64,000 bases of DNA from an uncultured virus (IMG/VR IMGVR_UViG_3300050821_005794) (lineage: Duplodnaviria > Heunggongvirae > Uroviricota > Caudoviricetes), in the IMG/VR virus record IMGVR_UViG_3300050821_005794. One strand, 5' to 3'. Both the position numbers and the translations under genes were made by a program. Below, in pieces: positions 3,883 through 25,437 of the stretch. The notes beneath the pieces were generated by a model. The model did not search any database and was not told where the DNA came from. It saw nothing but the letters and a program-made list of their open reading frames with translations. How positions within the stretch are numbered: the stretch's first letter is position 1; every line of letters begins with the position of its first letter.

Positions 3883-4359
3883 ATGCGAACAGACGTGCAA
3901 ATTGATAAACGTTACGTGTACTGTCCGAATGCGAGCACACTAGGGTATGGCAAGTACCGTGCTCAATTCGGCGATTTCCTTATGTGGCGCGAAGCAACAT
4001 ACGCGGCCAACGATCTAGAAACGAAAACTAACCCGCACTGTCATATGTGCTATGGCCGCATGGCCGGAAGGATTCACTATGCGCCCGCAATTTGTGACGA
4101 TACCGAACCCGTGCGCGATTGGATTCTGGCTATCGCGCTAGGCTCAAACCTCACGTTCGCTATGGAACGTTGGGTTGATCCTTCCGAGGTAGTAGAGGTT
4201 TTTGAACCCACAGCCAAACTACAAAGTTTCCTGAATTACTTTCTTTCCGAACAATTCAAACAAGAAAAGCCCAATACGTTGCGGGCCTGGAGTACTTCCG
4301 GCTTTAGCACTATGCAAGAATATCAAAATTATCTCAATTCAAGGAGTGTGCGACCATGA
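3883..4359 (+). CDS. hypothetical protein
   Basis: GAGAGGT RBS, 158 aa, ATGA overlap with next gene. Confidence 0.75.
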   Translation: MRTDVQIDKRYVYCPNASTLGYGKYRAQFGDFLMWREATYAANDLETKTNPHCHMCYGRMAGRIHYAPAICDDTEPVRDWILAIALGSNLTFAMERWVDPSEVVEVFEPTAKLQSFLNYFLSEQFKQEKPNTLRAWSTSGFSTMQEYQNYLNSRSVRP

Positions 4360-4658
4360 AAACGATTAAGGTCTATTCCCACCGCGATAGTTGTATCCGC
4401 GTAATAGAAACGAATGATGCTAACTACGCGCGAGATTGCTTCGACGGTACAGACCGCGAATGGAAAGAAATTGCCGAGGAATCCGCCATAGGAGACTTGG
4501 ATTCGCCAATGGGCACGTTCTATATCGTGTCTAGCGGTCTCTCTGGTTTGTACATGGCCGATAATGTTTCTGTCTATGGCAATCGTGCGACCGCGCTATC
4601 GGCGGCCAAAGAAGAGTACGAACGTTGGCAAGAGGAAGACTCAAAGGAGGAATCTTGA
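4356..4658 (+). CDS. hypothetical acidic protein
   Basis: AGGAG RBS, coupled start. Confidence 0.7.
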   Translation: MKTIKVYSHRDSCIRVIETNDANYARDCFDGTDREWKEIAEESAIGDLDSPMGTFYIVSSGLSGLYMADNVSVYGNRATALSAAKEEYERWQEEDSKEES

Positions 4659-18489: not shown

Positions 18490-18770
18490 AACCTAGTCTT
18501 ATATTATTTCTTCTCTTGGCCGCCGGTACGTCCGACAAGCGCGACATTCAAATCCTTGGTCCTGACCCCGATGCTGTTGGCGGCCACATTCTTCTGCCTC
18601 ATGTCCCGCCAATTATTTATGTGCGCCAGACAAAAGGCCCAGCCTTACCTGAAAAAGGCAGTCTTAGCTGCCATTGGGACCAGCAAAACAAAGATGGGCG
18701 GCCATACTTGGTTGGAACTTGCGACGATAATATAGAATTAATTGTTACTGGATTAGACTTGAATTATTGA
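18486..18770 (+). CDS. secreted hypothetical protein
   Basis: Signal-like MKPSLILFLLLAAG; ATGA overlap. Confidence 0.55.
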   Translation: MKPSLILFLLLAAGTSDKRDIQILGPDPDAVGGHILLPHVPPIIYVRQTKGPALPEKGSLSCHWDQQNKDGRPYLVGTCDDNIELIVTGLDLNY

Positions 18771-18964
18771 TGTATCTCATTCTAAGCCCCGTCTCTGGCG
18801 GCAGAGTTACGGTGTAGCGGAGTCTGTAAGAAACCCACGTGGGTCGAAATAAATATTTACAAATCCTAATCAACCAAGTTGATTCATACGCAGCGGCAGT
18901 TGCTGCCCCGCCGACCATCATTCCCAGAAAGTTGCGCCGACTACTGTTCATAACTTGAACTCCT

Positions 18965-18993
18965 GAAAAAGGGCCGAGCCTAAACCCGGCCCC
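18965..18993 (-). terminator. intrinsic terminator
   Basis: GGGCCGGG-TTTAGG-CTCGGCCC then TTTTT on - strand. Confidence 0.65.
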
Positions 18994-18999
18994 ATAGTA

Positions 19000-19392
19000 T
19001 TAAACTTCCCGCCCGACCAAGAAAAAACGCTTGCCATTGTCAAATTGCATTACGTCTATCTTGCCTGCAAAGCCGTGCTTCTTGACGCACTCTGTAACTA
19101 GCGTCTTGAAGCTCTGGACGAAGCTCTTGCGCCTTGCAGCTTCGATTGTGATTTCCGGCGTCGTGACATCAATTTCGCCGACGACCTCGCAAGGATTCAA
19201 GCCTTCGCTGTTGATCCTATCCAAGAGATTGTTAATCTCGCGGAAGACTGATAGATGCCGCAGACCTGCGTACCGATTGCGGCCCCGGCCAAGTGGTAAA
19301 TCGTTTCTCGAAATCGGTCTGATCGTGTGAAACTTCATACCGTCTAGTACGTTGATCTCGCGCCCTTCTAGTGCTTGTGCTGTCGCAACCAT
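19000..19392 (-). CDS. hypothetical protein
   Basis: AGGAGG RBS before ATG 19392. Confidence 0.7.
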   Translation of the reverse strand: MVATAQALEGREINVLDGMKFHTIRPISRNDLPLGRGRNRYAGLRHLSVFREINNLLDRINSEGLNPCEVVGEIDVTTPEITIEAARRKSFVQSFKTLVTECVKKHGFAGKIDVMQFDNGKRFFLVGREV

Positions 19393-19489
19393 GTGATTCC
19401 TCCTTTTAGGTGGATGCCCCGTTCGCATCGTAGAAACATTCTAGCAAGGAAGGAAAATCACGTCTGTTCAATATTGCACACTATTGAAA

Positions 19490-20734
19490 TTATTCTTTGG
19501 TCTTCTCGTAGTAGGCTGAAGATATAACCTTGAGTTGTGCGCGGCCACATTCTCGAACGTATCTATCTGGCACAGTGCAAATGACGACGCCTTCTCGAAT
19601 GTGGTTGCCGCCTGCTTGGGTTTTGCCTTCGACCAGCGTTGTAGCTACTTCGGGATTCCACCCGCCAACAGCAAACAAAGATACCCATTCAATACTATAT
19701 CCTTCAGTCATCAATCGTGCTTGAGTCTTAGGCACCCAGTTGCCTTCTGAATCGCGAATATCAAACACTAAGACTCGCGGGTGCTCGGGTGTCGCGCCGT
19801 AATCAAAGCCTTTCTGGGTTGGCACAACTTCGCCGTACAGAGTATACTTAGGGTTATCGCGGCACCATCGTTCTAAATCAGGATTTTCCTTGGCTGCTTT
19901 TCTCCAAACATTACTAGACTTGGCCCGCTTCCAGAGTTTGCGCGAACCAACATAAAATTTGCCCTTGCCAAAGCCTGGCATAAAAACACACCTGAAATTG
20001 CTACCGTGGATTTTTTCAGTAATAACTACGTCTTCGCCAGGCACAAAAACCTGAGTATAATTTTTGAAGGCTTCGACATCGTAGATAGGTGGTGTGTGTT
20101 CGGGGGCCTTCTCATTAGCCCCGCCCAAATCGCCCCAGGGATCGTACAGCCCAAAACTCAGCCAATATGAAAGGAAATATAGCCAACCCTTCAGCGAGCG
20201 CGGCCAAATTTTAGATTGCTTTATGCTAGGTCCGCTAGATTGAACTTCATCAGGCTCGGGCGGGTTCCAGTGTGTGATGCCCAAAAATTCAGATACGTCG
20301 TCACCCTCTACAACTTGAATTTGTTTGCCTGTATCTCCATTATCCCGTAGCAAAGCGAAACTACTCGGTCTATAAAAATCAATGCCGTTGAGAGTGTCTT
20401 CATAGGGTGCAATCGTGGGCATGAGTAACCCTTCGGACCACTCTTTGCGCAACCTTCGCACTGTAACCCTGCGCCACTTCTCAGGAATCTCCATTTCAGG
20501 TACAATAACCCGAAGATTGCCGCCGCCATCCTTCTCCCACACAAAAGAATATTCAGAACGTGGGGGTACGACTGAATCTGGCTGCACATAGACTGCAAGC
20601 TCGCCAACTTTGAACTGCCCCTTACCAACCACAACTTGAAATCCCTCAATGGGTATTATTTCTAAACGATCAGCGTTTGGGTGGGGCAGGATACTAGCAA
20701 TGCGAACTACGTTGGTTCGGTGGGTAGAGTTCAT
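19490..20734 (-). CDS. ATP-dependent RNA ligase (DRB0094/Rnl2-like) with N-terminal OB-like domain
   Basis: HPNADRLE N-terminus; motif I TEKIHGSN; YGEV, VFDI, REGVV and LKVIS. Confidence 0.9.
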   Translation of the reverse strand: MNSTHRTNVVRIASILPHPNADRLEIIPIEGFQVVVGKGQFKVGELAVYVQPDSVVPPRSEYSFVWEKDGGGNLRVIVPEMEIPEKWRRVTVRRLRKEWSEGLLMPTIAPYEDTLNGIDFYRPSSFALLRDNGDTGKQIQVVEGDDVSEFLGITHWNPPEPDEVQSSGPSIKQSKIWPRSLKGWLYFLSYWLSFGLYDPWGDLGGANEKAPEHTPPIYDVEAFKNYTQVFVPGEDVVITEKIHGSNFRCVFMPGFGKGKFYVGSRKLWKRAKSSNVWRKAAKENPDLERWCRDNPKYTLYGEVVPTQKGFDYGATPEHPRVLVFDIRDSEGNWVPKTQARLMTEGYSIEWVSLFAVGGWNPEVATTLVEGKTQAGGNHIREGVVICTVPDRYVRECGRAQLKVISSAYYEKTKE

Positions 20735-20763
20735 AATGTGAACACCTCGGCGGCTAAAAAGAA

Positions 20764-20824
20764 AGAACGGACAAATTTTTGTGATCCAGTCTTATAAAGA
20801 GAACAGATCACGGCAGCCCGTTCT
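20764..20824 (-). ncRNA. Y-RNA-like hairpin 3
   Basis: AGAACGGGC(U)G pairs with UGUCCGUUCU; upper stem GUGAUC/GAUCAC. Confidence 0.7.
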
Positions 20825-20830
20825 GAAATT

Positions 20831-20950
20831 TAAGACACAGACGAGAATTAGGAATCCGTAACCCACATTTCTGTGGATGCGGGGTTTGAACCCGCTCTCA
20901 GTTATTAGACTGATTTATCCAATAACGAATTCCTGTCAGCCCATGTCTTA
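20831..20950 (-). ncRNA. Y RNA with tRNA-like domain (YrlA-like)
   Basis: UAAGACAUGGGC(U)GA/UCGUCUGUGUCUUA bulged stem; AGGAAUUCGU/ACGGAUUCCU; T arm GCGGG-UUCAAAC-CCCGC; AUCCACA-GAAA-UGUGGGU. Confidence 0.8.
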
Positions 20951-20968
20951 TAAAGTACTAAAATAAAT

Positions 20969-21030
20969 TGTAGACAAGTTTGTGTTCAAGGAGTTTACAT
21001 TAGCAGGTAACCCTCGAACCTCAGCCCACA
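20969..21030 (-). ncRNA. Y-RNA-like hairpin 1
   Basis: UGUGGGC(U)GAG pairs with CUUGUCUACA; upper stem GUUCGAGG/CCUUGAAC. Confidence 0.7.
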
Positions 21031-21043
21031 GCCCGCACAATTT

Positions 21044-22618
21044 CTATTCTAGCGCAAATTGACTTATAATCTGCGGCGTACTTGCATCAAACCCAACCAC
21101 ATCGAGCATTCCAGCATCGTTGGGGTCCGCAATACTAAATTGATTAGCGACTAGTCCACAGACTACTAGCTTGGCCGCGATTCCTGTTTTCTGCCTGTAC
21201 ATCTGCAAGGCTTTGACAGGATGTGTTGCCCCGCACCAGGTTTCTGAATCCGTATAAATCACGAAAGTATCAACGTTCATTTTCTTTTCAAGAGCATCCA
21301 AAATCGGCGCGGCACAGTCTGTGCTACCGAATGGTAATCCTTCTGTGATGCGGATAGCGTCCCGCAGGGTTGTCTTGGCGGTAACAGGAATTTCTATGAG
21401 TTTGTGTTGAAACCCAGCCATGTAATAGTTGCTTTCTGTTCTTGCGGTAACCATTGCCATAGCCATTGCTGCCGTTCGTGGCGACAGAAACGTACCCGCA
21501 ACCGAACCTGAAGACATCGAACCGGAAACATCAATCCCCAGATAGAAATTCTTCTTGGTCGGCTCAATGTTCTTAAACGCTAAATAAAATGCGTCATCTA
21601 GCGCATCTACAACCTGTGGCACGACCTTCCATTCGCCGTGACCTAGCATCCCTCTGCCAGCGCCATATGTACAGGCTGCGATCAGAATTTGGATAGGGTG
21701 AACGCGGGCTTTCTTAAGAAGGTCTGCGTCTGTCAGCCGTTCACAAACTGTACTAGCTGCTTCTGACAGCGGCGACAGCAATCCAGACTTGCTCATGTTG
21801 CCTAGATTGCGAATCACAGCTGTCATGGGCATTTTCTCAAGCAGCGCGGCCCAAACAATAGGGTCCTTCAAAAGTTCAGTAGGTACGGATTCGCGAACCA
21901 ATCCGTAATCTTTAATTAACTTGGCCGCATCGAGGGCCTTCGTAGTTTCTTGCAATTTAACATGGCCTTTGATGATAGCAGGGGTAGTCTTAGTAACTTC
22001 GCCCTTGACAACCCACTTTGCGATGGCTTGGTATTGGCCCTTGAACTTGATGTGTCGGAGCCGAAAGATATCCTTATGGCTCCAACCATCTCGCTGTTGG
22101 TACTTTACTACTTGTTCCGCCAGACGTTCGGGTTCCTTCTCAGTATACCACGCCGCAACAGCCCGGCGCAGACCTCGGCCCCATCCTCGGAATTGGCGAA
22201 CATAGGCAACGAAATGAAATAAGTGCGTGCCGATTCGAGCAATTTCAGGCAGGTTTGCTAATGCCGATGTTCGGGCAGTAATATCACCTTTGGCGGCCAC
22301 GTACGCTAACGCCATCAGTGCCGGATCGTTCTTCGGAGCACGACCGCCGCGACTGATTTCAAGAATGCGGTTGACAACTCGCAAGCCGTCTTTTTCGGCG
22401 CATTCTTTGACGGCTTTGAGATTGTCTATTGTAAGCTTTTGCTCGGAGGCATAGTAGCTGCCGCCTTCTGATCCCAAAATTAAGAAGCGATCTAACCGCT
22501 TCCAACAATCCACAGCGAAAGAATATCCACTGGCAGAATTCTGAACTTGTCTTTCGTTTAGAGGTTCAGTTTGTGGCGGATTCTCTAATGTGCTTGCAGC
22601 CCGCGTTAAGTAGCTCAC
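21044..22618 (-). CDS. rsr: Ro60/TROVE domain RNA-binding protein with vWA domain
   Basis: RLDRFLILGSEGGSYY, GWGRGLRRAV, KYQQRDGWSHKD, MPMTAVIRNLG, DVSGSM, TDSETW and GMLDVVGFD. Confidence 0.97.
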   Translation of the reverse strand: MSYLTRAASTLENPPQTEPLNERQVQNSASGYSFAVDCWKRLDRFLILGSEGGSYYASEQKLTIDNLKAVKECAEKDGLRVVNRILEISRGGRAPKNDPALMALAYVAAKGDITARTSALANLPEIARIGTHLFHFVAYVRQFRGWGRGLRRAVAAWYTEKEPERLAEQVVKYQQRDGWSHKDIFRLRHIKFKGQYQAIAKWVVKGEVTKTTPAIIKGHVKLQETTKALDAAKLIKDYGLVRESVPTELLKDPIVWAALLEKMPMTAVIRNLGNMSKSGLLSPLSEAASTVCERLTDADLLKKARVHPIQILIAACTYGAGRGMLGHGEWKVVPQVVDALDDAFYLAFKNIEPTKKNFYLGIDVSGSMSSGSVAGTFLSPRTAAMAMAMVTARTESNYYMAGFQHKLIEIPVTAKTTLRDAIRITEGLPFGSTDCAAPILDALEKKMNVDTFVIYTDSETWCGATHPVKALQMYRQKTGIAAKLVVCGLVANQFSIADPNDAGMLDVVGFDASTPQIISQFALE

Positions 22619-22636
22619 ATTGCCTCCATTTGTAGG

Positions 22637-22665
22637 ATTTTATCAGAACCCTTAAATATTGTCAA
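22637..22665 (-). promoter_or_regulatory. near-consensus sigma70 promoter of the Ro60 operon
   Basis: TTGACA-17 nt-TAAAAT, then GGAGG and GTG start. Confidence 0.8.
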
Positions 22666-22768
22666 GTCTTTTTTTTTTGAATATTTCTAGATATTCCTAA
22701 CATGGCGGCCTATTCCATTTCTTCTAGGCGGGAACCGTCCAAGCACCCAGCACGTTTGGATGCACCTG

Positions 22769-22987
22769 CTAGTCAGGGGACGAATGAAACCTGCCGCCAA
22801 TTCCGAAATTCTTTTTGACTTTTCTCCTATACGCAACCATGTAGTTCGGATGCTCGTCGTAGAACGATCTCATTTTACATAAACTACTGCAAAATCTTTG
22901 TTTGGTGCCGCCGTTTTGCGGCCTAACTTTTTGAAAAAATCCCTTGAGACACCAAAAACACAATCTTATTGGTCGCGAATCATTCAT
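22769..22987 (-). CDS. small zinc-finger protein
   Basis: CFWC..FCSSLC. Confidence 0.5.
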   Translation of the reverse strand: MNDSRPIRLCFWCLKGFFQKVRPQNGGTKQRFCSSLCKMRSFYDEHPNYMVAYRRKVKKNFGIGGRFHSSPD

Positions 22988-23327
22988 ATCTGAACAGTTA
23001 CTAACGGTTATCTGTGTCTATTACGGAATCCACTGCCCAAACAATTAATAGGATAAACAATGCTGTTAGATAAACTCCAATTATAGGAAAGTCCGGATAG
23101 AGCCGTCCAAGAAAGCTGCCAGTAAGCGCGGCCAACATAGCTGTTAAAATAAAAACAGGCACTCTCATTCGCTCAACACAGCAAGTGCGGCTATCGGGAT
23201 TGATTTCATGGCTTGGGCAACCTTTCTTTGAGAAGGCTACGAATGTCTTCAATAATAATACCAATGTCCACTAAGAGAAATATTATTACTACTCCGAATA
23301 TCCAAACATATATACTGGATGGATAGC

Positions 23328-24002
23328 TCATATTTTCTCCTTCTCCGCAGCGCCACGGTTGGCGGCGAGACTGGCAATAAATTCGCCGAAATTAGCCGCA
23401 TCCACACAACTGTCATCACACTTCCGAATATCCAAACATAGTGCTTCTGGTCCACATGGACCCTCATGTGAGGGGCGTGGCACATCAATATATGGAACTA
23501 GATACTCATAGACTTCTCGCTTCGCTGCCAGCACCGCTGCGTTCACTTTCTCTGTTACAAATCGCTCTACTTCCTCTGGCGTCATCCTGCCCATCTGGTC
23601 GCGCAGGGCGTCTTTTTGTTCGATTAGTTTATTTTCTTGTCTCTTCAACTCCGCATAACACTCATCGAGTTCCATTGACATTCCGGTACATTGAACCCGC
23701 ATTAGTCCGGTAGTATCCCAAACCTTCTTCGCCACCAGCTTCTCCAACTCATCTTCTTCGGCGCGGGTGGAGAGGGCGAGGATATCACGTACATGTTCTT
23801 GTGCAAACTCACACGGTGCAGGCCAACTACCATACTGGTCGCCATGTCCTTGATTACTTTTCGTTCGTTCAGCCGCCGCCCGCAGCGTCAGCGCCCGTTG
23901 TGCCGCGCGGTCGGCGATAAGTGAATCAATAACATCGTAAAGATTCTGCATCTCTTCATTAGGCCATCGCTTACGGCAGTACTTCTCCTTCACTCTATCG
24001 TC
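23328..24002 (-). CDS. hypothetical coiled-coil protein
   Basis: GGAGG RBS upstream of MDDRV start; start position approximate. Confidence 0.55.
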   Translation of the reverse strand, partial: DDRVKEKYCRKRWPNEEMQNLYDVIDSLIADRAAQRALTLRAAAERTKSNQGHGDQYGSWPAPCEFAQEHVRDILALSTRAEEDELEKLVAKKVWDTTGLMRVQCTGMSMELDECYAELKRQENKLIEQKDALRDQMGRMTPEEVERFVTEKVNAAVLAAKREVYEYLVPYIDVPRPSHEGPCGPEALCLDIRKCDDSCVDAANFGEFIASLAANRGAAEKEKI

Positions 24003-24332
24003 CATTGGCAGCCTCCCGTACCAGCTTCTTCGCGTGAAACAACTTGCAATCATCTTCGTGATTTAATTTTGAAGGACTGGCAGCAACGGCATGGCAGAAC
24101 TTACAGTGAAACCAACGATCTGCTCCTTGCTCGACCGTGTAGAAACCCTTCGCACCTTCCACGAGTGCCCAGCGTAGGGCCTTCTTTAATTCTTCAACGA
24201 GCATCAGCGACCTCCTCATCTAGTACTTCATCCCCTTTAAGGCTTCGTCCACTCTCGCTCGCCATTCCGATTGCGGAAAGTCAGGATAGAACCGTCCAAG
24301 AAAGGTGCCAACAATCGCAGCCAACATAGCTG

Positions 24333-24704
24333 TTAAAATAAAAATAAACAATCATCATTTGCGCGGATTTCGACAGCTGTATCTGCCGCAGTCCGCAACG
24401 ACAGCACCTGTTGTGTCTTGTTTACAACATTAAGCGCGGCAAGTTGGTCGCGCCATTCAATGGCCTGATTGAACACGCCTGTAAAATAGTCCATGTGCTC
24501 ATCAACCGAGGCGTTGGCCCCCAGTCCAGTCACTTTGCACAATTGTGCGCTTATCAGCGTCCGTTGTGCGGCACGGTCGGCGGTGATAAATTCGGCCAGA
24601 CTTTTGACTTGGGCCTCATCGAGATATTCCGTAGACATGTCGGCATATTGCCACTGCATTGCACGCAACTTCTCCTCCAACTCCTTTTCGCTATTGTCCA
24701 TCAC
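24333..24704 (-). CDS. hypothetical protein, partial paralog of the 23328 gene
   Basis: Shares ADRAAQR motif; GGAGG RBS. Confidence 0.55.
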   Translation of the reverse strand: MMDNSEKELEEKLRAMQWQYADMSTEYLDEAQVKSLAEFITADRAAQRTLISAQLCKVTGLGANASVDEHMDYFTGVFNQAIEWRDQLAALNVVNKTQQVLSLRTAADTAVEIRANDDCLFLF

Positions 24705-24993
24705 ACCCTCCAGTTCTTCTATAAGCGCCCAGACCTGCGCGCTACTTTCTGGTCAAAGAGATGCCTCTAGTGCGTACAGTCTTGACAGTTGCTCTGTCAG
24801 GATATCGTTCATCAGCAACCTCCTCAGTCCTCGTTCTACCTCTCCCGCTCCGGGTCTCGCCGGGGTCGTGCTGAATTCCCGTACTGTGCACAGGACACAC
24901 TCCGTATGACTTTCCACATGTACAGTTCAGAAGGCACCTCCTCTCCGCCACATCCGTCGCGGCCTGTAATTTGGTGGGCACGCAGAGGGAGGT

Positions 24994-25437
24994 TTACCCG
25001 CACACTCTGTAAGTGCCGTTTTCCAGTACTTCTACTAAACAGGGACTTCCCGGTTTTGTCCACTCTTTCAAAAAGTAATCAACCACATATCTCTTTGATT
25101 TCCCTTGGAATGTGTTCACCATGCCAGGATTCATCAGAGTGCCGTCCCCTTTCCAATATTTGTTAACGTAGGTGTAGCATTTGTCCACCAAGAATTTCTC
25201 TGTCGCATCGACAAACATTCGAGTACCGGGTGCTGGTTTGTAGTCTATCGGTGTGATCACATCTTGGTCCCAATTAACGTGTGTCATTTCCTTACCTCCA
25301 CGAGATTCAACGCAGAAGGGTGTTACACCATCTCGACTGTTCCAGATGATTTCCCACTCAGAACCATCATCTGTTTGGTATTTCATAAGTTTGAATGCTT
25401 CCGCATGATTGCTCAACCCGCACCACCCTCTCTTCAC
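24994..25437 (-). CDS. conserved phage hypothetical protein
   Basis: HAEAFKLMKY..EIIWNSRDGVTPF. Confidence 0.7.
   Translation of the reverse strand: MKRGWCGLSNHAEAFKLMKYQTDDGSEWEIIWNSRDGVTPFCVESRGGKEMTHVNWDQDVITPIDYKPAPGTRMFVDATEKFLVDKCYTYVNKYWKGDGTLMNPGMVNTFQGKSKRYVVDYFLKEWTKPGSPCLVEVLENGTYRVCG

Follow-up and report, generated by a model that had tools for sequence, protein, structure and literature searches.

The 64,000-nucleotide (nt) stretch of DNA considered here, referred to as the window, belongs to an uncultured virus of the Caudoviricetes (IMG/VR record IMGVR_UViG_3300050821_005794). Its phage origin is indicated by an endolysin-like open reading frame (ORF) and by the location of the closest Ro60 relatives on viral contigs. 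The minus strand carries an rsr gene, coding for a Ro60 protein, followed downstream by a gene for an ATP-dependent RNA ligase of the DraRnl type. Three Y RNA genes, Y-a, Y-b and Y-c, stand in tandem between them (Table 1). The middle one, Y-b, is a tRNA-like Y RNA without a D arm, and it is the main subject of the present analysis. As expected of a Y RNA, it lies close to rsr on the same strand, 94 nt downstream of the stop codon. No ORF of at least 60 amino acids (aa) overlaps positions 20735-21043. Y-b is a real small RNA gene adjoining the phage rsr gene.

Table 1. Features of the region from the ligase gene to the rsr promoter. Coordinates are window positions; the RNA position p equals 20951 minus the window position. 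A6 is the alignment described in the text.
Feature	Position	Strand	Evidence and remarks
Y-b, D-armless tRNA-like Y RNA, 120 nt	20831..20950	-	fold, homology, covariation
Predicted Ro60-binding module, 5′ strand GGGCUGA (p9-15)	20936..20942	-	conserved in A6
Linker UUAUUGGAUAAA (p26-37)	20914..20925	-	YUAY motif (UUAU), then GG..A; can be read as a stemless D loop
V (variable-arm) hairpin UCAGU-CUAAUA-ACUGA (p38-53), then GA	20898..20913	-	4/5 pairs doubly changed, 91.1% of cells paired
T arm GCGGG-UUCAAAC-CCCGC (p56-72)	20879..20895	-	5/5 pairs doubly changed, 100% of cells paired
Acceptor-like hairpin (AS) AUCCACA-GAAA-UGUGGGU (p73-90), 7 base pairs	20861..20878	-	7/7 pairs doubly changed, 95.2% of cells paired
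UA dinucleotide (p91-92) after AS	20859..20860	-	3′ strand of P2 resumes directly
Predicted Ro60-binding module, 3′ strand CUCGUCU (p106-112)	20839..20845	-	conserved in A6
Y-a, short YrlB-like Y RNA, stem and loop, 62 nt	20969..21030	-	regex motif census; hairpin in region fold
Y-c, third short Y-like RNA, with U tract	20754..20824	-	RNA 20764-20824, U tract 20754-20763; read by eye
rsr/Ro60 gene, 524 aa, TROVE and Ro60 vWA domains	21044..22618	-	PF25045 E 2.6e-64; PF05731 E 9.2e-42
Candidate sigma-70-type promoter, TTGACA, 17-nt spacer, TAAAAT, with TG	22637..22665	-	11/12 matches; upstream of rsr
ATP-dependent RNA ligase, DraRnl/NgrRnl (Rnl5-like) type, 414 aa	19490..20734	-	N-terminal OB fold and nucleotidyltransferase domain

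The ends of Y-b are paired in a bulged stem made of two helices. In P1, p1-12 pair with p109-120 and, beyond bulges, two more pairs join p14-15 to p105-106. P2 joins p17-24 to p94-101, and a G25-C93 pair is also possible. The stem displays GGGCUGA and CUCGUCU on its two strands, P1 and P2 covary among relatives (see below), and the length falls within the 80-130 nt of Y RNAs. The preliminary description, drawn from the letters of the window alone, had placed three hairpins inside a Ro-type stem. The hairpins (UCAGU.., GCGGG.. and AUCCACA..) are indeed present on the minus strand where they had been placed, and the enclosing stem extends from 20950 to 20831, which are exactly the ends of P1. 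The T stem-loop is of the YrlA kind (pair probabilities 0.88-1.0) and continues into AS (0.83-1.0) without any spacer. AS has the closed acceptor end of YrlA, with a stem of 7 base pairs (bp), a GAAA loop and then UA. Only this UA separates AS from the 3′ strand of P2, so that the D stem-loop of YrlA is absent. The earlier assignment of Y-b to the YrlA lineage, with a canonical T arm, a looped-shut 7-bp acceptor stem and no D arm after it, is thereby upheld for an RNA adjoining rsr.

The 141-nt region folds at -51.1 kcal/mol, compared with -29.0 ± 3.7 kcal/mol for shuffled sequences (z = -6.0; none of 200 as good). Taken alone, the T-loop motif GGTTCRANYCC is not significant, with 1 match for 0.48 expected and at least one match in 41 of 100 shuffles. 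The weight of the identification therefore rests on the whole fold, on the adjacency to Ro60 and on the homologs.

The homologs come from a set of 235 loci around Ro60 genes, namely 3 loci plus 80 metagenomic loci (the best 80 of 535), 73 viral loci and 79 loci from genome bins. One of them, L004, is the window's own contig, hence 234 other loci. A covariance model built from the Y-b sequence alone (R1) finds as the closest relative an RNA at 4966-5083 of L006/L087 (67.9 bits, E 8e-14), which has the D-armless layout too. The order of its parts is that of Y-b, with different helix sequences: GGGCCGA, UCGUUACCGGUCAAA, GCCAGC-UUCG-GCUGGC, GAG, UGGG-CUCAAUA-CCCA, ACUCC-GAAA-GGAGU, CUA and CGGAU. 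Its linker region reads UCGUUACCGG..AAA before the V hairpin. With filters off, R1 was also run on 17 loci, where it finds an RNA at 4466-4587 of L191 (52.2 bits) and weaker Y RNAs. Tandem Y RNAs are the rule in the related loci, up to five in a row being found in L006.

In L191, positions 4466-4587 form three hairpins in the layout of Y-b, with a tRNA-type T loop, UUCAACU, on the first hairpin and the loop UCGUAAG on the second. Of the 18 stretches that a pattern scan of the viral contigs for the 5′ half returned, inspection recognised only the one in L163 (the L087 contig) as a Y RNA; the remaining 17 resemble chance matches within unrelated sequence.

The folds were tested on A6, an alignment of 21 Y RNAs (17 loci) that was fitted to the model. 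When the family fold (P1, P2, V, T and AS) is imposed on A6, 93.0% of the cells are paired, compared with 61.8% after shuffling and 41-48% in slid controls. Changes on both sides are observed in 35 of 39 pairs, and none of 500 shuffles reaches any of these measures.

By model matches and inspection, D-armless Y RNAs with a T-type hairpin amount to 21, from 20 loci (L004 and 19 others). Some are found on viral contigs, others in bins labelled Cyanobacteria, Chloroflexota/Anaerolineae, Armatimonadota, Gemmatimonadota and Actinomycetota. Seventeen of the loci with D-armless RNAs were scanned with Rfam, and the YrlA model (RF02553) also gives a match in 7/7 and 4/10 of them. Three others of these loci (L187, L206 and L103) give neither an RF02553 nor a tRNA-model match. 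The window has no canonical YrlA and no tRNA in its 64 kb; it is therefore unusual, not unique. In L212, L213 and L218, the tRNA model gives matches of 108-136 nt just upstream of Ro60, in Armatimonadota and Gemmatimonadota bins. These matches may be tRNA-ordered Y RNAs with a long insert.

The tRNA-model matches lie at 1972-2090 in L212, at 1695-1820, 1858-1965 and 2185-2320 in L213, and at 2182-2301 in L218. At 4512-4652 of L005/L084/L085, and also at 2895-3027 of L023, a complete tRNA with the normal arm order sits inside a Y RNA stem (GGGCCGAAG...GGUUAUC...CUUGUCUUCGC). ARAGORN reports a tRNA-Ile(GAU) at 4556-4630 of L005 and an odd "tRNA-???" at 2933-3006 of L023. The Ro60 genes of many relatives stand within large tRNA arrays (L013, L014, L054, L206 and L200), with 25, 22 and 19 tRNAs in L013, L014 and L054, respectively. 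A permuted tmRNA is found at 5944-6290 of L006. Finally, positions 50-4283 of L200, a cyanobacterial bin, hold in this order RtcB, two D-armless Y RNAs (1924-2027 and 2274-2382) separated by a tRNA, Ro60, then a canonical YrlA at 4150-4283 and lastly a tRNA array.

Recognition by ARAGORN and by the YrlA covariance model had been suggested as a check of the preliminary description. Neither recognises Y-b. At the gathering score, Rfam gives no match in the window. At E ≤ 1, there is likewise none in the whole 64 kb, and thus no canonical YrlA and no tRNA; at E ≤ 10, no YrlA or tRNA (RF00005) match is obtained in 20600-21200. The local matches at E ≤ 10 were rejected as chance (IS605-orfB-I, 15.8 bits, on the other strand; Plastid-ycf2, 14.9 bits), as were all four matches at E ≤ 5 in 18500-25000, none of them to YrlA or tRNA. 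ARAGORN finds no gene in the window, and Y-b does not have the anticodon-arm cloverleaf with open acceptor ends of a tRNA, its acceptor end being closed by the GAAA loop. As a control, RF02553 does find YrlA beside Ro60 in Gordonia phage Cashline (42.2 bits), in Mycobacterium phage Sparky (36.6 bits) and in a viral contig (33.5 bits), as well as in many metagenomic relatives at about 30-52 bits, all of these control matches being under the gathering score of 69.

In tRNAs, the D loop follows the consensus A14-N-Y-Y-G18-G19-N-A21. Canonical relatives of Y-b carry GCUC-A..GG.A-GAGC where Y-b has no D arm. The linker of Y-b, between the 5′ strand of P2 and the V hairpin, contains a YUAY motif followed by GG..A. 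YUAY is common to all Y RNA classes of the set, and the GG..A extension alone is specific to the D-armless class. In automatic classes, some rows of which are misclassified, a GG at most 6 nt after YUAY is found in 11 of 18 RNAs with a T arm and no D arm, in 9 of 39 with both arms (Fisher p = 0.008) and in 44 of 240 short Y RNAs (Fisher p = 0.00016). Separate regex classifications, taken as leads only, mislabelled several RNAs, for example by calling T arms in short loops, through D arms resembling class II, or by running across two RNAs. In eye-curated lists, the string U[AC]YY-N0-2-GG-N1-2-A, which resembles the D-loop consensus of tRNAs, occurs in 12/21 D-armless and 4/36 canonical RNAs (Fisher p = 4.5e-4). 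The base preceding the T stem is a pyrimidine in 33/36 canonical RNAs and in 6/18 D-armless ones, 9 of which have an A, as Y-b itself does. The rarity of this pyrimidine in D-armless RNAs would be expected if its D-loop partner, a purine, is gone. From these sequence features we infer that the linker string UA-YY-GG-NN-A would dock on the T loop and so take the place of the D loop.

In the tRNA-like domain of tmRNA and in D-armless mitochondrial tRNAs, the acceptor and T arms are kept, and a stemless loop replaces the D arm and contacts the T loop. There, the replacement loop occupies the site of the D arm. In Y-b, the D-loop-like string is on the other junction strand and the acceptor is sealed.

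Published systems offer further points of comparison. YrlA has been defined by a 5′ GNCGAAN0-1G motif, a variable region opened by YUAY, a less conserved V and near-invariant T and D stem-loops (Chen 2014, PMC4201824). A conserved UA links AS and the D stem-loop, and a conserved pyrimidine ends the variable loop (Wang 2018, bioRxiv 10.1101/312249). With YrlA, Y-b shares the adjacency to rsr on the same strand, the Ro60-type stem, YUAY, the V hairpin, the T arm, the looped-shut AS and the UA after it. It differs by the missing D arm, by its GCUGAC 5′ motif, by the purine A before the T stem and by the extra GG..A linker between YUAY and the V arm, and it gives no RF02553 match at E ≤ 10. The 5′ motif, GCUGACAG, is two positions off GNCGAAN0-1G, and related loci often show such GCUGAC and GCCGAC variants.

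T arms without full D arms have been described in Mycobacterium smegmatis YrlB and in Deinococcus radiodurans Yrn1 and RNAs a/b, which are Rsr-associated and, like Y-b, stand as additional Y RNAs in tandem with others (Chen 2014, PMC4201824). The kind is therefore already known, and the layout of Y-b is a variant of it. As described there, Yrn1 differs in the order of its arms and has an arm resembling that of the anticodon. Three features of Y-b, namely its V-T-AS order, its GAAA cap and its GG linker, are not mentioned for these RNAs in the text covered. The bases of Yrn1 protected by Rsr are G7, G8, C9, G11 and A12 (Chen 2014, PMC4201824), and the GGCNGA of Y-b matches them. Among the titles and abstracts of the literature covered, none deals with a class of D-armless Y RNAs, and T-arm-only RNAs appear in Chen 2014 alone, the supplements of which were outside the scope and may list such RNAs. 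Phage-encoded Y-like RNAs adjoining a phage Ro60 gene are also known from Thermus phage phiLo; as described, its Yrl1 and Yrl2 differ from Y-b in lying upstream of Ro60, in their stem-bulge-stem shape and in their CGAA motif, and the paper never uses the term "tRNA-like" in its main text (PMC12135203).

The rsr product scores 574.9 bits against NF041674 (Rsr), under the curated cutoff of 900. It has 7998 relatives at E ≤ 1e-30, the best non-self one being 75% identical. Y-a starts 14 nt past the rsr stop codon, directly upstream of Y-b, and aligns with short Y RNAs of the relatives, sharing with them GGGCYGA, GGUUAYC and CUUGUCY. Y-c aligns with short Y RNAs as well, through the variant motifs GGGCUGCC, UGUUCUC and UUUGUCC. 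When Y-a and Y-c are aligned with the short Y RNAs of relatives, compensatory changes are seen in 10 of 15 predicted pairs. From its sequence, Y-c with its U tract is probably the end of the RNA cluster and would double as its terminator; a terminator scan made no call at this site. The candidate promoter upstream of rsr is the sole promoter-like site on the minus strand in 19300-23100, in a scan that is overall not above chance (4 found, 5.2 expected). A blastn search of 19400-22700 against a phage collection gave no match. Among public sequencing runs, the full stretch is present only in two from soil metagenomes, which may be its source, and in no RNA run. In contigs from four DNA runs, no variants are seen over Y-b, which only the probable source run covers. 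Just upstream of the promoter, a 72-aa ORF at 22769-22987 (minus strand) has a CxxC...CxxxC spacing like that of a zinc ribbon, but matches nothing in Pfam or PHROG.

The ligase matches PF09414 and PF21189 (PHA02142 OB fold), as well as phrog_968 (E 1.4e-41). Its residues 13-106 match the N-terminal OB domain of Naegleria gruberi NgrRnl (PDB 5COT, E 1.3e-6), and its score against TIGR02306 (DRB0094/DraRnl family) is 122.8 bits, under the cutoff of 151.15. It contains EKIHGS, which we take to be motif I.

Considering these data, the following scheme may be proposed. Y-a, Y-b and Y-c would probably be transcribed together with rsr from the single sigma-70-type promoter, and then excised from the precursor. 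The closing stem of Y-b would carry the Ro60 recognition module on both of its strands, and is predicted to bind Ro60. The head would correspond to the top half of a tRNA, with the T arm stacked on the 7-bp, GAAA-capped AS and with the variable-arm hairpin aside, the conserved UA alone preceding the stem after AS. The single-stranded 5′ linker, UA-UU-GG-AU-A, would behave as a stemless D loop, its GG docking on the T loop to form a tRNA-like elbow. By analogy with RYPER, Y-b would link phage Ro60 to a tRNA-binding or structured-RNA-binding protein of the host, and would gate the Ro60 cavity during infection. The identity of this effector is itself taken by analogy; it is PNPase in the RYPER cases studied, and ternary complexes of a phage Ro60, phage Y-like RNAs and the PNPase of the host have been obtained in vitro (PMC12135203). 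Tethering and gating of phage Ro60 would be the most likely action, decoy or substrate roles being minority readings. The explanation as a whole, namely a Ro60-binding Y RNA of the YrlA lineage without a D arm, whose linker rebuilds the elbow and which serves as tether and gate of phage Ro60, appears probable to us. A bolder version is rather unlikely, in which D-armless T-arm Y RNAs would form a distinct, widespread and undescribed class, with a relocated D-loop string docking on the T loop, and would act here with Ro60 and the ligase as a phage RNA repair or anti-nuclease particle.

Several observations weigh against the scheme. The 5′ motif of Y-b is GCUGAC and not the published GNCGAA. About a fifth of the remaining Y RNAs likewise have a GG after YUAY, and the linker is on the side of the junction opposite to a real D arm. 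The class lists behind the linker counts hold misclassified rows when automatic, and eye-curated entries otherwise. A6 was fitted to the structure that it tests, so that its pair counts lean towards that structure, and it mixes D-armless, canonical and short Y RNAs. Finally, in the isolated sequence, a 10-bp hairpin is 6 kcal/mol better than the family fold, and it buries both YUAY and GG. The family fold may thus depend on tertiary contacts or on contacts with protein, or may be a minor form of this RNA.

This last point deserves a closer look. The minimum free energy (MFE) structure of Y-b, at -50.3 kcal/mol, pairs GUUAUUGGAU with GUCUAAUAAC (p25-34 with p41-50) and stacks this helix directly on P2; the family fold reaches -44.4 kcal/mol. 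The pair probabilities are 0.71-0.99 for the 10-bp hairpin and about 0.01 for the 5-bp V hairpin. The three-hairpin fold first proposed is backed by the comparative evidence, and the MFE structure replaces one of its hairpins, the 5-bp one. The same description had noted that AUCCA could pair with the upstream UGGAU, giving a mini-tRNA. The complementarity exists, but this fold was rejected, since it reaches only -35.9 kcal/mol, some 14 kcal/mol worse than the MFE, with pair probabilities close to 0, and is not conserved (55.2% of A6 cells paired, 44.4% after shuffling and 59.6% in the control slid by +3).

It may be imagined that both structures of Y-b are used, the RNA switching between the 10-bp hairpin and the family fold, for instance upon Ro60 binding, and so hiding or exposing YUAY and GG. 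The energies just given speak for such a two-state RNA. However, the 10-bp helix is not conserved in A6 (54.2% paired, compared with 50.5% after shuffling, and 67 of 500 shuffles as high), the MFE folds of L006, L021, L023 and L086 leave the linker unpaired, and the helix is A/U-rich, so that it could be a by-product of low G+C content. Such switching is therefore held to be improbable, while the comparative evidence leaves room for a competing helix specific to the window.

The ligase gene brings in another possibility, of comparably low likelihood, in which Y-b is a substrate of processing or repair. RNase P would cut the 12-bp minihelix formed by the T arm and AS, and the adjacent ligase would reseal it; or the RNA would guide or decoy the ligase or a host anticodon nuclease. 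The products of RNase P carry 3′-hydroxyl and 5′-phosphate ends, which ATP-dependent ligases join, in keeping with this idea. The ligase gene comes next after the RNA cluster, with the same orientation. The only YrlA RNA that is cut by RNase P and receives CCA, in M. smegmatis, is the one with a 7-bp AS (Chen 2014, PMC4201824), and AS of Y-b also has 7 bp. Ro60 adjoins RtcB in L200 and in Salmonella (PMC7790460). The idea that YrlA could be a nuclease decoy is already in print (Hughes 2020, PMC7790460). On the other side, the length of AS is not conserved in the relatives, where it ranges from 5 to about 15 bp, and a U tract stands between the RNA cluster and the ligase gene. DraRnl-type enzymes prefer a nick in a duplex, which a cut in a tetraloop does not provide.

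The ligase does not accompany Ro60 in related loci. A tblastn search found a homolog at none of the 234 other Ro60 loci, and only in L004 (flanks of at most 2.5 kb, 3 kb for L001). The arrangement of rsr, Y RNAs and ligase is thus a one-off. Among 37 neighbouring ORFs from 16 related loci, there are one RtcB (L200) and one metallophosphoesterase (L005), the rest being unrelated or unknown. The arrangement in the window echoes the known operon rsr-yrlBA-rtcBA (PMC7790460), as well as the co-occurrence of RNA ligases and a TROVE protein remarked upon in some jumbo phages (PMC7824862). Whether the ligase belongs to the Ro60/Y RNA system is uncertain.

Y-b might also be seen as a YrlA in decay, that is, a canonical tRNA-like Y RNA that became a functionless remnant after deletion of its D arm and is merely carried along with rsr. 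The window has no canonical YrlA, the Rfam YrlA model is blind to Y-b, and the D-armless relatives differ widely in the length of AS and in whether they have a V arm. Yet the layout is kept in L006/L087 and in L191 with other helix sequences and conserved junction motifs, all five helices covary, and the T loop is fully canonical. Y RNAs that have a T arm and no D arm moreover recur in phage contigs and in genome bins of five phyla. Such decay is therefore considered very unlikely. That Y-b would be something other than a Y RNA, either an element regulating the ligase gene in cis (leader, terminator or attenuator) or a piece of tRNA remaining from an integration event, agrees with its place between two genes and before a hairpin with a U tract, but hardly deserves credence, because its homologs adjoin Ro60 genes without a ligase, it carries on both strands the Y RNA stem motifs common to Y-a, Y-c and many short Y RNAs, and no integrase or tRNA gene is nearby.

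The preferred reading of Y-b, as a Ro60-binding RNA whose linker would replace the D arm, bears on how Y RNAs are thought to work. In bacteria and phages, Y RNAs are believed to work by means of their tRNA-like head, and the highly conserved D and T stems have been proposed as the part read by the effector (Wang 2018, bioRxiv 10.1101/312249). A recurrent class keeping the T arm and AS without the D arm would narrow what the effector requires, the more so as Y-b is the sole tRNA-like Y RNA in this phage. D-armless RNAs escape the curated YrlA model, so that censuses of Y RNAs undercount them. The neighbourhood of Ro60, Y RNAs and an ATP-dependent ligase would be a further, isolated link between Ro60 particles and phage RNA repair. 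With its 120 nt, Y-b offers a compact construct for asking whether the GG of the linker replaces the D loop.

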